This document shows positions 12,660 through 23,421 of a DNA stretch of 64,000 nucleotides, piece after piece. The stretch covers positions 5,519 through 69,518 of the forward strand of contig JACQPG010000050.1 in the NCBI GenBank assembly GCA_016207665.1, written 5' to 3'. The notes below the pieces were generated by a model that was not told the DNA's origin, searched no databases, and saw nothing but the letters and a program-made list of their open reading frames with translations. This DNA comes from Elusimicrobiota bacterium (lineage in GTDB: Bacteria; Elusimicrobiota; Elusimicrobia; UBA1565; UBA9628). Made by a program: the position numbers and the translations under genes. Each line of letters starts with the position of its first letter. Within the stretch, counting starts at the first letter, position 1.

Positions 12660-14255
12660 ATGATTGACGCTCGCCTACTGGCGCGGATTAGGAAGTGCGT
12701 CAGCTCCTTCATGAAATCCCAGCATAGAAAGAAGGGCCTGAAGGTTTTCGCGGCGCTGGCGGTGTTGTACGCCATCGCCTTCTCTGGCGAGACTCTCTGG
12801 CGGCGGCGCACCCGGGCCGTGGTGCTGGAACCCTCCAAATCCTCCTATTTCCACTATGAGTTCATCGAGATACGCCTAAGCAGCCGCGATCCGGCCCTGA
12901 GACGCCGGTGGCGGCAGTCGCCTCCCAAGGTCGTGGTCACGCGCGGGGGCCAGCCCGTCACGACCATCGCCTCCATCAGGGAAATGGCGTTGCAGCCCGA
13001 CGAATCGACCGGGATGTGGTCCGCGCGTTGGCCCTGCCCATGGAACGCGCCTACCGGTGTCTATGAGCTGAAGCTGGTCGAACCCGGCGACTTGGGCGAG
13101 CGCCTGACCGCCCGTCCGTTTTCCATCCGGCGCCGCAAGCCCAAGCCCGTGCCCCACCGTTTCGCCGTCCTGACCTTGGAGAGCGTGAGGCCGTTGCGGA
13201 CCATGAAGGTGAGGACTCCGGACGGAGAGATCAAGGATTGGCGCGGTCTCTTCGATTGGGTGGAATATATCGGCGCCGACGCCTTCTGGGTATTGGCGGG
13301 ACGGACTCCAGGGGACCGGCCGCAAGAGGTCTGGTTGAGCCACAACCTTCCCATGATCCCGGAGCTGGCCAAGGAATCTCGCCGGCGGGGCATCAAGTTC
13401 GGCGTCTATGTCATGTGCTATCTGACGCTTTCTAGCGACCGGCTGTCGCGCTACGAGTACGCTCTCGACGTCCAGGACGGGCGGCCCGTGCCGACCCGCG
13501 CCATTTCCATACGCGATCCCCGGCGCGCCGAGGACGTGGGCGCGCTCCTCGAGCGCATGCGCGATATCCCGGAGGTCGATTATCTGGGCCTGGATTACAT
13601 ACGCAATCCCTTGGGAGGGTATGAGCTGGTGGACGATTTCTATCGCGAGATGCCGGTGTCCCCCCCTCCCGGCTGGGACAAATTGAGCCGGGAGGAGCGC
13701 ATGGTGTATTTCGTGCGCAAGAAGATCATGCGCCTCGATAGGGACTTCATCGACGCCTGGCAGTGGTGGCGGGCGCATCGCGTGGCCGGCATAGTCAGGG
13801 GCATCAAGGCGAGGCTCGGCGACTCCAAGCCCTTGTGGGCCTTCACCTTGACCTGGGACAAGGGCTGGCATCACGGTCAGGATCCGGTGATGATGAACGA
13901 CGCCGGAGTCGATGCCGATGCTCTGATGCTTTATGAGGCCGATGAGTCGCAGTTCGCGGCCATGATGCGGGACTGGAGCCGCTATGTCCGGAAAGACGAC
14001 GTCCAGCTCATCGTCGGCGACGTGATCGATTGGAATCTCCATCAGAAACACCCGGAGGGTCCCAAGGAGTTTTATCGACGCACGGTCGAGGCCATCAACA
14101 AGATCCACGCGGACGGGATGGCGACCGGAGTCTTTTTTCACGATCTCGACCGCGCGCTTTGGGGGCGCTTGGGCCCCTGGGACAGCCGGGCATGGATGGA
14201 CGAGGCGCGCCGCGCCGTCCAGTATTTCAAGGCCTCGGGAGTCGTCGCGCGATGA
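12660..14255 (+). CDS. membrane-anchored hypothetical protein, possible glycoside-hydrolase-like TIM-barrel domain
   Basis: 531 aa. N-terminal TM LKVFAALAVLYAIAFSG. No confident family match from sequence alone. A glycoside-hydrolase-like fold is an inference from composition (many W/D/E/Y, DYLGLDYIRNP) and locus context. Confidence 0.45.
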   Translation: MIDARLLARIRKCVSSFMKSQHRKKGLKVFAALAVLYAIAFSGETLWRRRTRAVVLEPSKSSYFHYEFIEIRLSSRDPALRRRWRQSPPKVVVTRGGQPVTTIASIREMALQPDESTGMWSARWPCPWNAPTGVYELKLVEPGDLGERLTARPFSIRRRKPKPVPHRFAVLTLESVRPLRTMKVRTPDGEIKDWRGLFDWVEYIGADAFWVLAGRTPGDRPQEVWLSHNLPMIPELAKESRRRGIKFGVYVMCYLTLSSDRLSRYEYALDVQDGRPVPTRAISIRDPRRAEDVGALLERMRDIPEVDYLGLDYIRNPLGGYELVDDFYREMPVSPPPGWDKLSREERMVYFVRKKIMRLDRDFIDAWQWWRAHRVAGIVRGIKARLGDSKPLWAFTLTWDKGWHHGQDPVMMNDAGVDADALMLYEADESQFAAMMRDWSRYVRKDDVQLIVGDVIDWNLHQKHPEGPKEFYRRTVEAINKIHADGMATGVFFHDLDRALWGRLGPWDSRAWMDEARRAVQYFKASGVVAR

Positions 14256-14749
14256 GAGCGTGGGCGGCGGCGGCGCTTCTGTGGATCGGAGCAGCGTTTC
14301 CTTCTTTGTGCTCGGCTCAAGTGCCGGAGCCGGCCCGGGAGGACGTTCGCCTGCCCGCTCCCGAGCCCTCTCCCGCAAAAAAAAGGAAGGGCAAGGACAA
14401 TCCTCCCTTAGCCCTGGCCCTGGACCTCGCTTTCGGCCCCACGGTATGGGCTCAAGTCCAGATCTCCACGGCGGGGCCCGTGGTCGAGCTGAGCAAGCTG
14501 GTCAAGGAGGGCTATTACAAGCTGGAGCTCATCCAGCTCATCCTGATGAGTTCTCAGTCCAAACGGCCGCTCAAGGAGCTGCTCGAGAAGCGCCGCAAGG
14601 GCGCCAAGCTGGCCGAGATCGCTTGGGACCTGGGCCTCGATTATGAGAAGCTCTACGGCTCGGCTCTGGCCGTCCAGGAGCTCGTGGACAAGGAGTATCT
14701 TCCCCGCTTTCCCGAGACTCGCCTGCGTCGCGCCGGCGAGGAGCCTTGA
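14252..14749 (+). CDS. secreted hypothetical protein
   Basis: About 166 aa from the ATG at 14252 (ATGA overlap with the upstream gene). Signal peptide MRAWAAAALLWIGAAFPSLCSAQ. Confidence 0.5.
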   Translation: MRAWAAAALLWIGAAFPSLCSAQVPEPAREDVRLPAPEPSPAKKRKGKDNPPLALALDLAFGPTVWAQVQISTAGPVVELSKLVKEGYYKLELIQLILMSSQSKRPLKELLEKRRKGAKLAEIAWDLGLDYEKLYGSALAVQELVDKEYLPRFPETRLRRAGEEP

Positions 14750-15213
14750 GCGGGTTCCTGGCTTGCGCGCTGGCGCTGGCTCTCAACGCCGGCCCCGCGG
14801 CGCCTCTCAAGGCGCCGAAGCGGACCCGCTTGGAGCTTCCCAGCGGCGACAGGCTCATGGTCGACGTGGTCGACACTCCGGCCGAGCGCATGAAAGGGCT
14901 GATGTTCCGCCGTTCGCTTCCCAAGGATTATGGGATGCTTTTCGTGTTTCCGGCGCAGACCTGGCAGACCTTCTGGATGAAGAACACCTGGGTGAGCCTC
15001 GATATCGTATTCATCGACAAGGATAAAAAGGTGACCGCCATCTATCACGAGGTTCGCCCTTCCACGCCCAAGACCAGCGACTTGGAAGTCGCGCGCGTCA
15101 GCGGATTGGGCCAATTCGTGCTGGAGTTGCCGGCCGGCGCGGCGCGGCGCTACTCGCTTGATAAAGGCCGACTCGTCGACTTCAACCCCCCTATAACGCC
15201 CCCAAGGCGCTAA
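14746..15213 (+). CDS. DUF192 family protein
   Basis: 155 aa. Motif PAERMKGLMFRRSLPKDYGMLFVFP...FWMKNTWVSLDIVFID...VLELPAG matches the DUF192 consensus. TTG start overlapping the upstream stop (TTGA). Confidence 0.75.
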   Translation: MSGFLACALALALNAGPAAPLKAPKRTRLELPSGDRLMVDVVDTPAERMKGLMFRRSLPKDYGMLFVFPAQTWQTFWMKNTWVSLDIVFIDKDKKVTAIYHEVRPSTPKTSDLEVARVSGLGQFVLELPAGAARRYSLDKGRLVDFNPPITPPRR

Positions 15214-15327: not shown

Positions 15328-16416
15328 ATGAGCCCCTCCCTAATGTCTTTCGAACCGATATTCCGCCTGAGCCTGCTGATCAGCCTGGCCTTGCTCGGCT
15401 TCGTGGCGCTGCTCATCGTGGCCCTCATCATCTCCAAGGGCCTGCGCCAGCTCTGGCTTCGTTACTCGAGCTGGCGAGAGGATCGGTTTAGACGTTTGGT
15501 GCTGGGGGCGATCGCGACCGATCATCCCCAGGCGGCCGGCCGGCTTTTGTCTTGCTTGTCCTGGCCCGGGGACAGGAGGGTGGTCAAGGCGTATCTATTG
15601 CGCCTGGCCGAGGGGCTCAGCGGGCATGGACGGGAGCGCATATACGCGCTGTTCGAGAGCGCCGGATTTGCCGACGACGAGATAGGACGGTTGGGCAGTT
15701 GGCGCTGGTGGGTCCGAGCCCAGGCCGCCCAGAGGCTGGGGATCATGATGTGCAGCAAGGCCGCGCCCGAGCTGGTGCTGGCGCTCGATGACCGCTCCAT
15801 CGAGGTGAGGCTCATGGCCGCCTGGGCCCTGGGCCGCTTCGGCGATTGGCCGGCGCTTTTCCGGATCGTGGAGGCCTTGGCGCGCTACTCGAAGCTGGCC
15901 ACGCTCCGGGTGACCGAAATCATCATGCAGATCGGCGCGGCCGCCGGTCCCATGGTCGAGCTGTTGCTCAAGCATGCCGATGAGGACGTCAGGCTCCTGG
16001 CCGTTCGGCTGGCCGGGCTGATCAAGGATGAGAAGGCCGCCGGGCAATTGCGGGAGTTCGTGAAGGATCCATCCGTCGACATCAGGGTCGCTTCCTGCGA
16101 GGCCCTCGGGGCCTTGGGCGGGGCGCGGGGCGCGAGCTCGCTGGTGGAGGCTCTCTCGGACGCGGCCTGGCCGGTGCGCGCCAAGGCGGCGCTCATGCTG
16201 GGCCGTCTGGCCTTGCCCCAGACCGCCGAGGCCTTGAGGACGACTCTTTCGGACCCGGCCTGGTGGGTGAGGCTCAACAGCGGACGGGCCTTGAGCCGGA
16301 TGGGTCAAGCGGGGCGCGAGATACTCCAGTCCGCGCTCTCCCATCCCGATCGCTTCGCCCGTGATATGGCGGCGCAATGGCTCGATGAATCCGAGCCGGC
16401 GCTGGGGACCCGATGA
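15328..16416 (+). CDS. HEAT/PBS-lyase repeat membrane protein
   Basis: N-terminal TM LSLLISLALLGFVALLIVALII, then multiple HEAT-like repeats (VRLMAAWALGRFGD, VRLLAVRLAGL, VRVASCEALGALG, VRAKAALMLGRL, VRLNSGRAL). Start moved to the ATG at 15328, downstream of a TGTCATATAAT box. Confidence 0.65.
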   Translation: MSPSLMSFEPIFRLSLLISLALLGFVALLIVALIISKGLRQLWLRYSSWREDRFRRLVLGAIATDHPQAAGRLLSCLSWPGDRRVVKAYLLRLAEGLSGHGRERIYALFESAGFADDEIGRLGSWRWWVRAQAAQRLGIMMCSKAAPELVLALDDRSIEVRLMAAWALGRFGDWPALFRIVEALARYSKLATLRVTEIIMQIGAAAGPMVELLLKHADEDVRLLAVRLAGLIKDEKAAGQLREFVKDPSVDIRVASCEALGALGGARGASSLVEALSDAAWPVRAKAALMLGRLALPQTAEALRTTLSDPAWWVRLNSGRALSRMGQAGREILQSALSHPDRFARDMAAQWLDESEPALGTR

Positions 16417-18587
16417 CGGGTTTCAATCTTTACGCGGCTCTCGAGATATACCAGGCGGGCCTGCTCTTCTATTTCATCGCGGTCAATATAGTCTATCTGG
16501 CCCTTTTCCTGATCTCGCTCTCGGCCATCGTCGATTATCTGCATCACAAGGGCTATCGCAACGCGCAGGAGGTGTTGCGCTCCCGATTGACGCCCCCGAT
16601 CTCGGTGCTTGTCCCGGCCCACAATGAAGCCGTGAGCATCGTCGCCAGCGTGCGCAGCCTGCTTCAATTGAACTATCCTGAATACGAAGTGATCGTGATC
16701 AACGACGGCTCGACAGATCGCACCCTGCAAGCCTTGACCGAGGCCTTCGGCCTGAGGAAGACCAAGCGCGTCTATCACCGCACCTTGCCCACGGCCGAGG
16801 TGCGCGGCCTATACGCAGGAGCCAAGACCTTTCCTTGGGTCACGCTCACGGTCATAGACAAGGAGAAGGGCGGCAAGGCCGATGCTCTCAACGCGGGCAT
16901 CAACGTCTCCCAATACCCGCTCTTCTGTTCGGTGGACGCCGACTCGATACTCGAGCGCGATTCTCTATTGCGCGTGGTCATGCCCTTCATGGAACGCTTC
17001 GCGGTCATGATGGGGGTCGGCGGCATCGTGCGGGTGGCCAACGGTTGCGCGATATCCGACGGATTCGTGCAACGGATCCGGTTGCCGAGGCGCTGGCTGC
17101 CGTGCTTCCAGGCCGTCGAATACCTCAGGGCGTTCTTATCCGGCCGCGTCGCCTGGAGCCGTATGAACGGTCTGCTGATTCTTTCCGGGGCCTTTTCTCT
17201 GTTCCGCAAGGACCCCGTCTTGGCGGCCGGCGGCTATCAACGCGGCAGCGTGGGCGAGGACATGGACCTGGTGGTGAGGCTGCACATGAACGCCGCGGGA
17301 CGGTCCGGGCCGCGCGAGATCGCCTTTGTCCCGGATCCGGTCTGCTGGACCGAGGTGCCGGAGAGCTTCAAGACGCTTTGGCGGCAACGCAATCGCTGGC
17401 ATCGGGGGCTGGGCCAGTCCTTGGCCGGCCACGCCAGCCTGATCTTTAACCCGCGCTTCGGCCTGATCGGGATTTTCGCGGCCCCGTATTTCTGGTTCGT
17501 GGAGTTCCTAAGTCCGGTGATCGAGCTTTCGGGCTACGCGGTGTTCGCGCTCTCGTGGGCGCTCGGGTCGGTACGCTGGGACGCCTTCGCCGCCTTCCTA
17601 ATACTATCCATATTGATGGGAGTGAACCTGTCCTTGCTGGCCGTTCTCCTTGAGGAGTTCACCCTTCATCGCTACCCCAGGATACGGGACTTGCTCAAGC
17701 TCCTGGCCTGCGCCGTCGCGGAAAATCTGGGCTATCGGCAGTTCGTCAGCCTTGCCCGCCTTCATGGGCTGATCGATTGGCTGCGCAACGAGACCTTGTG
17801 GGGCTCCATGGATAGAAAGGGCCTGCAGTCGGCGGCTCTGTTCCTGGGCCTTTTGGCCACCGCTTGCTTGTGCCGGGCTTCCATGGCGCTCAACGCTGGG
17901 CTCGGCTATGAGGATTTCTCTTTCGCCGGAGCGGGCCGCAGCTCGTGGATCAGGGTTGATCGCCGTCTTTCCCGGGGGTCCATCTCCGGCGGCCTTACGC
18001 GCATCGAGCGCTTCGGCGAACGCGAGGCCCAAGGGGAGCTGGGTCTGGGCGCCAGGCTCGGCCCGAGCGCGGGACTCGAGTTGGGGGCCAGCGCTTCCCC
18101 GGAGGCTCATATACTCCCCGAGTGGTCGGCCGCGGCGGTGCTTTACTGGAACCCCCGGAGGCCGGTGACGATCAGCCCCGGCCTGCGCAGCGCCGGCTTT
18201 CGCGCGGCCGGGGTGCATACGGCCAGCCTGGGGATCGAAGCCCAGGCCGCGCCCGGCCTCGCGGTTTTGGTCCGCGGCTTCGGCAGCGTGACTCAATTCC
18301 GCGGCTCGCGCGCCGAGGACTGGACCCCCGCCGTCCTGCTCGCGCTCCGCGCTCAGCCGATGGATTGGCTTCTTGTCGCGCCCTCGTTCGCCTATCGGGA
18401 GGAATCCTTCGAGGCCGGCGCTCCGGGCAGCGGCATCTCGCGCACCTTCCAAGCGCATGCCGCCCGTCTCGATCTATCGGCCGGCCGAGAGCGGGGCTGG
18501 GCCGCGAGGGCGGCTTGGGAATACGAGAGAAGGGTCCCTAAGAACTTCGTCAGGCGCTACGAGTTGGGACTCAGCTACCGGTTCTAG
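16413..18587 (+). CDS. processive family-2 glycosyltransferase (PgaC/IcaA/NodC-like synthase) with about 260-aa C-terminal extension
   Basis: 724 aa. N-terminal TMs, DGS (VINDGSTD), DxD (SVDADSILERD) and QRNRWHRG (the Q/RxxRW processivity motif), then C-terminal TM helices. The frame stays open a further 260 codons (see finding). ATGA overlap with the HEAT gene. Confidence 0.85.
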   Translation: MTGFNLYAALEIYQAGLLFYFIAVNIVYLALFLISLSAIVDYLHHKGYRNAQEVLRSRLTPPISVLVPAHNEAVSIVASVRSLLQLNYPEYEVIVINDGSTDRTLQALTEAFGLRKTKRVYHRTLPTAEVRGLYAGAKTFPWVTLTVIDKEKGGKADALNAGINVSQYPLFCSVDADSILERDSLLRVVMPFMERFAVMMGVGGIVRVANGCAISDGFVQRIRLPRRWLPCFQAVEYLRAFLSGRVAWSRMNGLLILSGAFSLFRKDPVLAAGGYQRGSVGEDMDLVVRLHMNAAGRSGPREIAFVPDPVCWTEVPESFKTLWRQRNRWHRGLGQSLAGHASLIFNPRFGLIGIFAAPYFWFVEFLSPVIELSGYAVFALSWALGSVRWDAFAAFLILSILMGVNLSLLAVLLEEFTLHRYPRIRDLLKLLACAVAENLGYRQFVSLARLHGLIDWLRNETLWGSMDRKGLQSAALFLGLLATACLCRASMALNAGLGYEDFSFAGAGRSSWIRVDRRLSRGSISGGLTRIERFGEREAQGELGLGARLGPSAGLELGASASPEAHILPEWSAAAVLYWNPRRPVTISPGLRSAGFRAAGVHTASLGIEAQAAPGLAVLVRGFGSVTQFRGSRAEDWTPAVLLALRAQPMDWLLVAPSFAYREESFEAGAPGSGISRTFQAHAARLDLSAGRERGWAARAAWEYERRVPKNFVRRYELGLSYRF

Positions 18588-19273
18588 CCCTTGGCGTCGA
18601 AGCGATAACCGAATCCCCGCACCGCGGTGATCATGCTCGCCACCGGCCCCAGCTTGTCGCGCAGATGGCTCAAGGTGACGTCGACCACCTTGGTGGTCAG
18701 GTTGAGGCCCGCCTCGTAGCCCCAGACGTATTGCAGGAGGAAGTCGCGGGTCAGCACGTGGTTGCGGCGATACATCAAATACCAGAGCAGGTCGAACTCC
18801 TTGGCGCTCAAAGGGACTTCCTTGTTCTTGATGAAGGTCTTGCGCGACTCGCGCTCCAGGCGCAAATCCCCCGCGGTCTGTATCGCGGGCTCCTCCATCC
18901 GTCCGGTGCGACGCAGCAAGGTCTCGACACGGGCGACCAACTCCTCGGTATTGAAGGGCTTGGCCAAGTAATCGTCGGCGCCGCTCTTGAGCCCGGAGAC
19001 TCGTTCCTCGACGGCCTTCTTGGCGGTCAGGATCAGCAGGGGCAGATTGTTGGATCTCTGGTCGCCCCTGATCTGGCGGCAGAGATCGATGCCGTCGCCG
19101 TCGGGGAGATTGCGGTCCAGTATCATGATCGTCGGCAGGGACTTCTCGAGGGCGTTCCTGGCCTTGGCCAAGGACTCGACGACCTTGACCTCGTAGCCCT
19201 CCTGCTTGAGCACCTCGGAGATCAAGTTCGATGTGGCGGCCTGATCCTCAACGACCAACACTGATGCCTTCAT
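18584..19273 (-). CDS. OmpR-family response regulator (REC + winged helix)
   Basis: MKASVLVVEDQ...D55-like ILDRNLPDGDGIDLC...LTAK..., C-terminal trans_reg_C (YVWGYE...). Start placed at the ATG at 19273. No histidine kinase is adjacent. Confidence 0.85.
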   Translation of the reverse strand: MKASVLVVEDQAATSNLISEVLKQEGYEVKVVESLAKARNALEKSLPTIMILDRNLPDGDGIDLCRQIRGDQRSNNLPLLILTAKKAVEERVSGLKSGADDYLAKPFNTEELVARVETLLRRTGRMEEPAIQTAGDLRLERESRKTFIKNKEVPLSAKEFDLLWYLMYRRNHVLTRDFLLQYVWGYEAGLNLTTKVVDVTLSHLRDKLGPVASMITAVRGFGYRFDAKG

Positions 19274-19299
19274 GATCGCATTATGATAGCACAACGGGG

Positions 19300-22494: not shown

Positions 22495-23421
22495 TTGATG
22501 GCCGCCGCTCCAGCGACGGCCACGTCTCTTTTTCCCGACTCGCCCTTCACCGATAAGGCCGTGGGGACGACCTCGGCCGCCTTCTTGAAGCTTCCCGTGG
22601 GCGCCCGGGCCGAGGCCATGGGCGGGGCCGCGGCCGGCTCCTCCAGCGGCGCCGAGTCGATTTTCCGCAACCCGGCCGGCCTGGCCCGTCTCAACGCTCC
22701 GAAGGCGACGGAGCTCATCATGACCTACAGCCAGCTTTTGGCCGATTCCTACGCCGGAGGCATGGGCCTGGGACGCCGCGCCATGGGCGGAACCGTGGGA
22801 ATGGGCTTGATCTATTTTTCCCAGAGCTCCTTGACCTCCTACGACGCGCAGGGCGACGTGACCGGAGAGTTCAGGCCCGTGGATCTGGCCTTGTCTTTGT
22901 CCTATGCCCGGCCGGTCGAGAACTTTCTGATCGGCGGAAGCTTCAAGGGCATCCGTTCTTCTTTGGCCGGCGAGACAGGCTCTAGCGTGGCAGCCGATGT
23001 CGGGGTCCAGGCCCTGCATGTGACCAATGTGGGCGAAGGGCCCCTGGATGTGGGCGCCTATTTGAGCCAGCTGGGGCCGCCCTTGAAACTCGGATCGGTC
23101 TCCTCTCCGCTTCCCTTCCAAGCACGCACGGGCTTTCTCTGGCACGCCTCCGAGAGGATGCTGGGCGCGGTCGACATCGTGCTGCCCGTGGATCACGATC
23201 CTTACGTGGCCCTGGGCGTCGAGCTGTCGCACCGGCATCGACAGTGGGCTGGATTCTTGAGAGCGGGATACAACCAGGCCCGTTCGCGCGGGTTGGATGG
23301 TTTGGCCGAAGTCACCGCCGGCGCGGGCCTCGAGTTCGGGAGCTTCCGGCTCGACTACGCCTGGATACCTTTCGGCGACCTGGGGGTCACCAATCGCGTG
23401 GCTCTCGGCTTCAAGCTTTAG
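22495..23421 (+). CDS. PorV-like outer membrane protein (T9SS PorV/LptO family-like)
   Basis: N-terminal region FLKLPVGARAEAMGGAAAG...FRNPAGLARL resembles the PorV/LptO signature GARAxAMGGA. Beta-rich with alternating hydrophobics. The start is probably a few codons upstream (signal peptide ...LLLLMAAAPATA). Confidence 0.55.
   Translation: MMAAAPATATSLFPDSPFTDKAVGTTSAAFLKLPVGARAEAMGGAAAGSSSGAESIFRNPAGLARLNAPKATELIMTYSQLLADSYAGGMGLGRRAMGGTVGMGLIYFSQSSLTSYDAQGDVTGEFRPVDLALSLSYARPVENFLIGGSFKGIRSSLAGETGSSVAADVGVQALHVTNVGEGPLDVGAYLSQLGPPLKLGSVSSPLPFQARTGFLWHASERMLGAVDIVLPVDHDPYVALGVELSHRHRQWAGFLRAGYNQARSRGLDGLAEVTAGAGLEFGSFRLDYAWIPFGDLGVTNRVALGFKL

Follow-up and report, generated by a model that had tools for sequence, protein, structure and literature searches.

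A GT2 synthase reading frame that continues into a YaiO-family outer-membrane barrel in an Elusimicrobiota bacterium: a gene fusion and its possible maturation

Results

Organisation of the locus

The window, by which we mean the whole 64,000-nucleotide stretch of an Elusimicrobiota contig that we analysed, contains an open reading frame (16413..18587, forward strand) that the ORF listing gives as 724 residues in a single frame without an internal stop. As the original prediction, made from the sequence alone, had proposed, this frame runs from a membrane GT2 synthase straight into an outer-membrane barrel module (Table 1). The gene before it encodes a HEAT-repeat protein, and its stop and the synthase start share the ATGA at 16413-16416. 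A HEAT ORF lies immediately 5' of the GT2 gene in 66 of 87 related loci, and likewise in loci L001-L008, L126 and L127. A Pfam scan shows the HEAT protein, a DUF192 protein, a response regulator and proteins without Pfam matches as the neighbours of the ORF. Pfam and NCBIfam scans returned no match named for PgaB, PgaD, PgaA or Ica partners among these neighbours, no TPR match in either the ORF or the neighbouring genes and, with regard to c-di-GMP control of the synthase, no PilZ, GGDEF or MshEN match there.

Table 1 Features of the synthase-barrel locus, in coordinates of the window.
Feature	Position	Strand	Basis
HEAT-repeat protein gene, N-terminal hydrophobic segment	15244..16416	+	Pfam HEAT_2, 104 bits
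Complete membrane-embedded processive GT2 synthase module, residues 1-475	16413..17837	+	GT2 Pfam models
Possible internal ribosome-binding site and start: GGGG, CTCC, ATG (Met466)	17800..17810	+	Sequence
Internal signal-peptide-like segment, residues 466-492	17808..17888	+	Alignment to N-terminal signal peptides of standalone homologues
Fusion point	between 17836 and 17837	+	DNA alignment: L001 and L008 carry TTAG there
Predicted mature 14-stranded YaiO-family outer-membrane beta-barrel, residues 493-724, and stop codon	17889..18587	+	TIGR04390, PF19413, AlphaFold2

An open frame of this length after the synthase had been put at a chance of below 1%. This estimate holds, since a stop-free run of 259 codons at the local composition (69% GC) has a probability of 0.6-0.7% by formula and of 0.6% in 20,000 shuffles. 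GC3 is 0.81 in the ORF frame both 5' and 3' of position 17808. The region of the barrel half is, however, also spanned by an antisense ORF of 284 residues (17604-18458), so the open frame by itself is weak evidence; homology and fold, not openness, are decisive for the reality of the barrel half.

The two halves of the product

The synthase half carries D149, D175-A-D177, E282-D283 and Q325-R-N-R-W329, all of which are invariant across 36 homologues. Its best-scoring named GT2 model is PgaC_IcaA (TIGR03937), at 120.8 bits far under the cutoff of 422.3, and the window GT2 is by this score not a PgaC equivalog. AlphaFold2 models residues 1-460 with a pLDDT mostly of 80-97 (one 10-residue block is at 77) and places helices at residues 2-46, 319-339, 347-365, 367-383, 389-418 and 424-457. 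The best PDB matches of this model are hyaluronan (Cv-HAS), chitin (Chs1/2) and cellulose (BcsA) synthases, and by sequence and predicted fold the half belongs with the membrane-integrated processive GT2 synthases of the BcsA, HAS and chitin synthase type. The module stops at the natural C-terminus of its family, WGSMDRKGLQSAA; the WGx[MIL]ERKG motif runs undamaged in frame as far as G470, and the commonest tail among unfused homologues ends 13 residues past the W of this motif (21 of 66 scored).

The barrel half exceeds the curated cutoffs of two family models: TIGR04390 gives 59.2 bits where 32 are required and covers positions 5-227 of its 230, and PF19413 gives 36.7 bits where 23.9 are required. 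Structure prediction on the module, which the original prediction had suggested from Met466 onwards, gives a helix followed by 14 strands with a mean pLDDT of 92.5, and Foldseek returns OmpG-type barrels as the best solved-structure matches (TM about 0.7), with the PgaA and BcsC barrels also matched. The product ends in ...RRYELGLSYRF, with a C-terminal Phe, and both this end and the peptide read from ATG 17808, MDRKGLQSAALFLGLLATACLCRASMALNAG..., are as originally described. These data support the proposed module of a putative signal peptide and an outer-membrane barrel, and HMM score and fold together assign the half to the YaiO family. The window has every invariant column of 25 aligned barrels which, with the high-confidence model, indicates a barrel half free of decay. 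Its destination would be the outer membrane. A full-length AlphaFold2 run used a GT2-dominated alignment and left the barrel half at a pLDDT below 50, making it uninformative on domain placement and topology.

The junction between synthase and barrel

The segment that joins the two halves resembles a signal peptide, with MDRKGLQS as its n-region and AALFLGLLATACLC (17832-17873) as its hydrophobic core. The uncharged core measures 15 residues, compared with 13-19 in standalone barrel proteins. Signal peptidase I could cut at CRA|S or SMA|L (after A489 or A492), and the (-3,-1) rule and the alignment to standalone signal peptides both suggest cleavage here. In the barrel-module model the hydrophobic helix occupies local residues 3-18 and the first strand begins at local residue 26, leaving about 7 residues between them, and therefore an uncut protein could not reach the outer membrane. 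The earlier argument that an inner-membrane synthase could not double as an outer-membrane barrel is sound: the barrel would not work as long as the two stay joined. The positive-inside rule and the pattern of fusions both point to a cytoplasmic synthase C-tail. L-A-T-A-C (17853-17867) might also be taken for a lipoprotein motif; since homologues do not conserve its Cys, the likeness is probably coincidence.

The ATG at 17808 and a GGGG upstream of it had been put forward as signs of an internal start. The G-run (17800-17803) is separated from the ATG by 4 nt (CTCC), not by 6 as first stated, and forms part of the codons for the invariant Trp463-Gly464. Met occupies the position-466 column in 43 of 70 synthase homologues, most of them unfused, and is the commonest residue there. 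Upstream of 17808 the duplex with the anti-Shine-Dalgarno sequence has a predicted energy of -4.7 kcal/mol; the median of the window's 248 internal ATGs is -3.0, and the value at 17808 falls at their 30th percentile, which makes the Shine-Dalgarno test uninformative. Because the Met is a conserved synthase residue and the G-run is indistinct, neither is evidence for an internal start. Gene starts across the window have weak Shine-Dalgarno sequences in general. A programmed -1 frameshift onto the TAG at 17812-17814 was likewise considered and set aside, there being no slippery heptamer.

Two-gene relatives and the point of fusion

The original prediction had recommended looking among orthologs for a split gene or a stop codon at the junction, and both are found. 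About 35 related loci encode the barrel on its own, in a +1-frame gene that overlaps the 3' end of the synthase gene. Such pairs are present in L001, L006, L007 and L008; in L127 the overlap is ATGA; and in about 30 metagenome loci with two overlapping genes none is fused (0/30). The closest relatives of the window, at 62-67% identity, are all unfused. Compared with L001 and L008, its two closest full-context relatives, the window lacks exactly 4 nt, TTAG, which hold the TAG stop of the synthase, and deleting TTAG in silico from both (offset 38) yields fused peptides in the register of the window. The barrel gene of L001 and L008 begins at a TTG in the +1 frame, 1 nt downstream of the position equivalent to ATG 17808, and in the window this ancestral start reads TGG. 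At the level of sequence, these comparisons establish separate-gene ancestry and the exact fusion point.

A frameshift between two ordinary genes had been another suggestion. We read all three frames at the junction; from the last upstream stop to the hydrophobic core, neither alternative frame offers an ATG, GTG or TTG for the barrel, and the junction, GGCGGCTCTGTT, contains no homopolymer or repeat. For these reasons sequencing error at the junction, including a simple one-base frameshift, seems unlikely. The three options first listed for the ORF (internal start, proteolysis and frameshift) do bracket the evidence, with relatives that carry overlapping genes in two frames and a window that has lost 4 nt including the stop.

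Recurrence of the fusion

The fusion in the window is known from one contig of one metagenome-assembled genome (MAG). An exhaustive search with the barrel alone gave 18 representatives, all standalone and 116-400 residues long (17 of them 225-400); it took a profile of four fused proteins to bring other fusions to light. Together they indicate that synthase-barrel fusion arose independently at least four times. One fused clade comprises 8 Gemmatimonadales clusters of 710-711 residues, and another 7 clusters of 887-902 residues (P0104 and relatives) that also carry TPR repeats; the fused clusters were drawn from NCBI, JGI, ENA and Logan assemblies. All fused junctions have a positive n-region, an uncharged hydrophobic stretch of 15-18 residues and a small-x-small site. 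In L076, where a GT2 is fused to a non-barrel periplasmic domain, the junction holds a 24-residue segment of transmembrane length. L126, the nearest unfused relative of the Gemmatimonadales clade, has no barrel gene downstream, and the fusion event in that clade is therefore not reconstructable. The fusion is both recurrent and, in two clades, conserved.

Discussion

On balance, and with modest confidence, we favour a joint reading in which ORF 16413-18587 is an end-to-end fusion of two normally separate genes and its product a synthase-porin polyprotein that signal peptidase I would cut, while a share of the barrel may be initiated internally at 17808. The ancestral order would have been HEAT-repeat protein, membrane GT2 synthase and YaiO-family barrel, forming one exopolysaccharide secretion module, with synthase and barrel as translationally coupled cistrons and the barrel start lying about 30 nt ahead of the synthase stop, in the +1 frame. 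A 3n+1 deletion within the overlap, most simply the loss of TTAG, would then have removed the stop and shifted the synthase frame into that of the barrel. The Sec signal peptide of the barrel would persist internally, its positive n-region now supplied by the conserved cytoplasmic tail of the synthase (MDRKG) and its short hydrophobic core and small-x-small cleavage site retained. Ribosomes would make one polypeptide, whose internal signal segment may add one more membrane pass in N-in/C-out orientation; the barrel part would be translocated, signal peptidase I would cut after A489 or A492, and the freed barrel would pass to the BAM machinery and into the outer membrane, there to serve as export pore for the polymer of the synthase. 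Initiation at ATG 17808 may contribute some free pre-barrel. We infer both the membrane topology and the nature of the polymer in this scheme. A point against this scheme is that bacterial polyproteins are seldom processed at internal signal peptides. That synthase-porin polyproteins as a group, with or without TPR repeats, are a real and repeatedly evolved trans-envelope polysaccharide exporter, with an internal signal peptide cut by signal peptidase I, is a tentative proposal that we would not yet call probable.

The same locus could be explained in other ways. The locus might in function be two genes, the barrel coming mainly from an independent start at ATG 17808 in the ancestral ribosome-binding context and the full-length fusion being made in small amounts or degraded. 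Only 1 nt separates this ATG from the position of the ancestral TTG start seen in L001 and L008, and the G-rich TGGGG(G) before both is the same; a Met equivalent to Met466 is present in each of the four independent fusion lineages, and from Met466 on the peptide reads as a full signal peptide whose n-region is net positive. Yet Met is in any case the commonest residue of this synthase column, among homologues that are mostly unfused, and the G-run is imposed by the Trp-Gly codons, with its unremarkable duplex energy. In the TPR clade, moreover, 20-35 residues lie between that Met and the signal peptide downstream of it, several members lacking a Met near the signal peptide, and with no stop in the way all ribosomes translating the synthase run on into the barrel, so that the fusion is necessarily produced. 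We consider this explanation improbable. Much the same weight goes to an assembly or sequencing error, or a minority variant, in a genome that truly has two overlapping genes, 4 (or 3n+1) nt having been lost. A single observation on one MAG contig, a difference from L001 and L008 of exactly one 4-nt indel at the stop codon, and an unfused state that is the overwhelming norm would all fit such an error; against this, nothing in GGCGGCTCTGTT favours a 4-nt miscall, restoring the 4 nt brings back the stop and still leaves the barrel without a canonical start (the TTG being TGG), and stable fused clades from independent assemblies show the architecture to be biologically viable.

A genuine deletion could instead have produced a lesion, with a fusion that is neither cleaved nor exported, a barrel and possibly a synthase that are lost, and a locus in decay. 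In favour, this lineage is a singleton and so gives no sign that its own fusion has lasted through speciation. We nevertheless think such decay quite unlikely, as both halves keep all family-invariant residues and the GC3 of 0.81 without further frameshifts or stops, and equivalent fusions have been kept under selection in two clades whose diverged linkers never gain stops. The continuous ORF might even suggest an uncleaved chain across both membranes, attaching the synthase directly to its pore as a fixed 1:1 coupled trans-envelope machine. The 7 or so residues between hydrophobic helix and first strand fall far short of the width of the periplasm, and the junction segments have the length of signal peptides with conserved small-x-small sites, not that of transmembrane anchors, which makes this very improbable indeed.

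Among known proteins, E. coli YaiO belongs to the same barrel family (182 bits compared with 59 for the window, at the TIGR04390 cutoff of 32), while the pairwise BLASTP match between the two barrels is not significant (E 0.15). In the E. coli cluster yaiS-yaiP-yaiX-yaiO the barrel gene is co-oriented with the membrane GT2 YaiP, which is 27% identical to the window GT2 (E 5e-10). Unlike in the window, yaiO stands as a gene of its own whose product begins with a signal peptide; a deacetylase and an acyltransferase are also encoded in the cluster, a HEAT protein is not. In the literature searched, E. coli yaiO appears almost solely as a PCR marker for the species; searches on YaiO function, HEAT and GT2 systems, internal signal peptides and fbcH gave nothing relevant. 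Like the window, the PgaABCD system co-encodes an inner-membrane processive GT2 (PgaC) and an outer-membrane barrel (PgaA). Structural matches to the window barrel include that of PgaA (4y25), and the TPR-carrying fused clade resembles the TPR and barrel layout of PgaA. The window differs in having 14 strands rather than 16, a HEAT partner, synthase and porin in one ORF, and no Pga-named neighbours. More generally, the synthase-dependent systems (Pga, Bcs, Alg and Pel) co-encode an inner-membrane synthase and a barrel porin, as the window does in one ORF, and a match to their periplasmic TPR scaffold is missing from the window ORF and its neighbours and occurs only in the TPR fused clade.

Fusions as such have precedents among synthase-dependent systems. 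BcsA and BcsB can be one encoded chain (Bcs review), and BcsAB, BcsZC and GT-deacetylase (GT-PgaB) fusions have been catalogued (PMC7112194). As in the window, adjoining subunits have merged there into one ORF; the partners, however, belong to the same or adjacent compartments, and an inner-membrane synthase with an outer-membrane barrel is not among them. A fusion of the type seen in the window needs a release step. In the window ORF, a signal segment with n-, h- and c-regions appears to lie internally, after a membrane protein and before an exported one, as in precursors of the FbcH type. The Bradyrhizobium cytochrome b/c1 precursor FbcH consists of a membrane protein, an internal signal and an exported partner and is cleaved into two products in a 1:1 ratio; the AcsAB synthase is another cleaved bacterial polyprotein. 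The window differs from FbcH in that its exported partner is an outer-membrane beta-barrel, which must still be chaperoned to BAM, and in that cleavage is predicted.

To our knowledge, no synthase-dependent exopolysaccharide system (cellulose, PNAG, alginate, Pel) does without an inner-membrane synthase or an outer-membrane pore, and we know these two only as separate proteins. By a 'Rosetta-stone' argument, the fusions suggest that YaiO-family barrels are the export pores of an uncharacterised HEAT-GT2 synthase family. Current annotation calls such ORFs either 'glycosyltransferase' or 'YaiO family outer membrane protein', and with both names half of the protein stays hidden. The fusions are also a pointer to a membrane polyprotein that is processed at an internal signal peptide; for outer-membrane proteins of bacteria this would be an unusual way to mature. 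If this is true, synthase and pore would be delivered in a strict 1:1 ratio from one translation event, and for the first time the C-terminal half of an inner-membrane protein precursor would be seen to mature into an outer-membrane beta-barrel. HEAT-GT2-YaiO would then represent a previously undescribed exopolysaccharide system, spread across Elusimicrobia and Gemmatimonadota and, in the form of HEAT-GT2 pairs, as far as Firmicutes.

A glycosyltransferase reading frame that continues into an outer-membrane barrel

The original prediction was that a GT2 synthase runs in frame into a signal peptide and an outer-membrane module from an ATG at 17808. The ATG is present, and the peptide begins with MDRKGLQSAALFLGLLATACLCRASMALNAG... 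and ends in ...RRYELGLSYRF, as claimed; the upstream GGGG is also there (17800-17803), but its spacing from the ATG is 4 nt (CTCC) and not 6 nt. The claim that such an open run has a chance below 1% stands as well, with 259 open codons expected in ~0.6% of frames at 69% GC, and third-position GC in the frame is 0.81 both 5' and 3' of 17808. However, the openness of the frame is weak evidence because an antisense ORF, very likely a GC-rich shadow, spans the same region, and the identification is therefore based on homology and fold. The product is identical to an NCBI protein named 'MAG: glycosyltransferase [Elusimicrobia bacterium]'.

Coordinates of the features discussed, in the window unless a locus is named
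Feature	Sequence	Position	Strand	Remark
Synthase-barrel ORF	window	16413-18587	+	single ORF, 724 aa
531-aa ORF	window	12660-14255	+	upstream of HEAT gene; N-terminal hydrophobic segment; no Pfam/NCBIfam match
ORF with signal-peptide-like start	window	14030-14749	+	upstream of HEAT gene; no Pfam/NCBIfam match
DUF192 protein	window	14746-15213	+	upstream of HEAT gene
Antisense ORF	window	17604-18458	-	284 aa; across barrel-coding region
OmpR-type response regulator	window	18584-19294	-	convergent; ends 4 nt inside barrel ORF end
308-aa ORF	window	22495-23421	+	weak PorV outer-membrane barrel match, 19.9 bits, below cutoff 27
YaiO-like barrel gene, Elusimicrobia GWC2_65_9	L002	7422-8201	-	directly after GT2
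YaiO-like barrel gene, Elusimicrobia GWC2_65_9	L003	5124-5903	-	directly after GT2
Two large genes	L005	8705-12513	+	745 and 511 aa; no Pfam match
Myxococcales GT2	L076	64-2568	+	same family as window GT2
E. coli K-12 yaiO locus	L125, NC_000913.3	380069-384616		

GT2 models match residues 61-411, the best named one being the PNAG synthase PgaC/IcaA at 120.8 bits, which fails the equivalog cutoff of 422. Across 36 homologues there is no variation in the catalytic signatures D175-x-D177, E282-D283 and Q325-R-x-R-W329, the AlphaFold2 model is confident over residues 1-460, and hyaluronan, chitin and cellulose synthases are its top solved-structure matches. This half is a processive synthase that resembles PgaC without being its equivalog. 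YaiO family models match residues ~495-723 above curated cutoffs (TIGR04390, 59.2 bits vs. 32, positions 5-227 of 230; PF19413, 36.7 bits vs. 23.9). Structure prediction, which had been proposed as a check, gave a beta-barrel: the AlphaFold2 model of residues 466-724, built on an alignment of 27 homologues, starts with one helix (local residues 3-18), after which come 14 beta-strands; its mean pLDDT is 92.5. Its best PDB matches are to OmpG, a 14-stranded porin (TM about 0.7), and the list of matches includes two polysaccharide pores as well, PgaA (4y25) and BcsC (6tzk). The predicted reading of this region as a signal peptide followed by an outer-membrane barrel is supported. Within the internal signal peptide, L-A-T-A-C (17853-17867) agrees with a loosely defined lipobox; since standalone homologues do not conserve the Cys, a lipoprotein reading appears unlikely.

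The three ORFs between 12660 and 15213 are not conserved beside the module in relatives. As in the window, the module has response-regulator genes beside it in L004 and L126, and this recurrence hints at a regulatory link.

Two genes in relatives, one in the window

Of the 120 top-ranking homologues, 117 have lengths of 408-516 aa (nearly all 452-500) and span only 57-66% of the query, and therefore end at the junction. Their contexts show a conserved three-gene module of HEAT-repeat protein, GT2 and YaiO barrel. The proposed ortholog check shows the gene to be split: in L001, L006, L007 and L008 the barrel is its own ORF in the +1 frame, overlapping the final 8-32 nt of the synthase gene, and in L127 the overlap is a classic ATGA. 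L002 and L003 have the barrel gene on the opposite strand, convergent with the synthase; it has no Pfam match in the existing annotation, yet aligns with the YaiO family. When metagenomes were scanned with the barrel alignment, 37 loci were obtained. The upstream gene is included in ~30 of them, and in every one of these GT2 stands ahead of the barrel, the +1-frame overlap is the same and no fusion occurs. An exhaustive barrel-alone search returned only 18 representatives, every one standalone.

Of 87 related loci, 66 have the HEAT-repeat gene directly upstream of GT2, among them Gram-positive genomes, in which the barrel is naturally missing (Bacillus, Clostridium, Paenibacillus, Sporosarcina). 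The pair is widespread in genome loci L009-L087 (e.g. L014, L026, L030, L032, L047) and appears to be a polysaccharide synthase system not yet described; we found no literature on it.

Unfused synthases of this clade share a tail, WGx[MIL]ERKGL, and most commonly end 13 residues past the Trp (21 of 66 scored). The window tail, WGSMDRKGLQSAA, is 13 residues and runs straight into the hydrophobic core LFLGLLATACLC. At the DNA level, the closest full-context relatives L001 and L008 read ...GC-TTAG-(T/C)CTG... where the window reads ...GC-TCTG.... If TTAG is deleted in silico, at offset 38 from the Trp codon in both relatives, the two genes of each become one fused peptide, WGTIERKGLDTAALLSAAPAAAQSRIDAGAAVEDYSF or WGVLERKGLGNTALALLLAAAASARASPMRSRVAVNTGYGHEEYS, whose register matches that of WGSMDRKGLQSAALFLGLLATACLCRASMALNAGLGYEDFSF in the window; the window is therefore the ancestral arrangement minus 4 nt (3n+1). 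The loss removes the TAG stop and shifts the synthase frame into that of the barrel. A synthase/porin pair of the usual two-gene kind has in this way become one ORF, through the loss of 4 nt where stop and start overlap.

Recurrent fusions

A profile from four fused proteins retrieved 17 fused proteins. Nearest-neighbour identity over the GT2 portion divides these into four independent groups.

Groups of fused proteins and their small-x-small motifs (slash, candidate cleavage site)
Group	Members	GT2 identity	Motif
1	window	nearest relatives 62-67%, all unfused	CRA/S or SMA/L
2	P0010	nearest relatives 73-74%, unfused	ARAA/S
3	Gemmatimonadales clade, 8 clusters (90% level), 710-711 aa	mutual 87-98%; nearest unfused 79-83%	[SAG]-Q-[ST]
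4	TPR clade, 7 clusters, 887-902 aa	mutual 79-94%; nearest unfused ~70%	ARA/ or LRA/

Both fused clades are drawn from NCBI, JGI, ENA and Logan assemblies, some of them on contigs of 233-485 kb, and barrels of the fused clades score at or above the TIGR04390 cutoff (35.6, 41.6 and 157.6 bits). In the TPR clade, GT2 is followed by a linker, a signal peptide, TPR and YaiO. The linker varies in length and sequence among members and never acquires a stop, which indicates that the continuous ORF is under selection. Directly downstream of the GT2-TPR-YaiO fusion at L005 lie two large genes that may be further components of this variant system.

The junction and its possible processing

Three features recur at every fused junction: a positively charged run, a short segment with no charged residues, and a small-x-small motif directly ahead of TPR or of the barrel's first strand. 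The uncharged segment is 15-18 residues, vs. 13-19 in standalone signal peptides, and contains a still shorter hydrophobic core, of 14 residues in the window. In contrast, the Myxococcales GT2 is joined by a 24-residue, TM-length segment to a non-barrel C-terminal domain (~330 aa, no Pfam match). The original argument that barrel and synthase must be separated is supported by the model, in which only ~7 residues lie between helix and strand 1, so that a tethered barrel could not reach the outer membrane. The positive-inside rule suggests that the synthase C-tail is cytoplasmic, as R468 and K469 precede the core and three Arg lie in the 419-426 loop; that exported modules have repeatedly been attached here suggests the same. 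The segment would therefore insert N-in/C-out, like a signal peptide. The probable mechanism, and the most economical one, is a polyprotein: the internal signal peptide would make one further membrane pass and be cut by signal peptidase I, freeing the barrel for BAM-dependent insertion. The Bradyrhizobium cytochrome b/c1 precursor is a precedent for a bacterial membrane polyprotein processed at an internal signal peptide.

Two other explanations, both raised with the original prediction, bear on this reading. Internal initiation at ATG 17808 could possibly yield the barrel, since this codon and the ancestral TTG are offset by 1 nt and follow the same TGGGG(G) stretch. Met is, however, the majority residue at this synthase column, the G-run is imposed by Trp-Gly codons and the predicted anti-SD pairing is unremarkable; no positive evidence for such initiation was found. 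The fusion protein would be made regardless, because there is no stop codon.

As to a frameshift, the window differs from L001 and L008 by 4 nt at the junction, and the exact fused sequence is known from one contig only, a singleton. Several points speak against a trivial error: homopolymers and repeats are absent from the junction, the TTG that served as the ancestral +1-frame start reads TGG in the window, and neither alternative frame has an ATG, GTG or TTG ahead of the hydrophobic core. Putting 4 nt back regains the stop, but the start is still absent, and the fused architecture is demonstrably viable elsewhere. A sequencing error is therefore unlikely.

Comparison with known systems

The module shares the overall logic of the Pga, Bcs, Alg and Pel synthase-dependent systems, but Pfam and NCBIfam scans of neighbouring genes gave no Pga, Bcs or Pel partner by name. 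No TPR match was found in the window; its module's conserved partner is the HEAT-repeat protein. Fusions reported in synthase-dependent systems are BcsAB, BcsZC and a GT-PgaB deacetylase, with no synthase fused to an outer-membrane barrel among them (PMC8892547; PMC7112194). E. coli YaiO belongs to the same family as the window barrel, and in the literature found on YaiO function, yaiO appears essentially only as a PCR marker. Its cluster, in one orientation, comprises yaiS (deacetylase), yaiP (membrane GT2), yaiX (acyltransferase, IS2-split) and yaiO, and looks like a cryptic polysaccharide locus broken in K-12; YaiP is a distant relative of the window GT2 (27% identity, E 5e-10). The same collapse has been repeated and is stably inherited in two clades, with the signal peptide always kept, which makes the fusion more than a curiosity.
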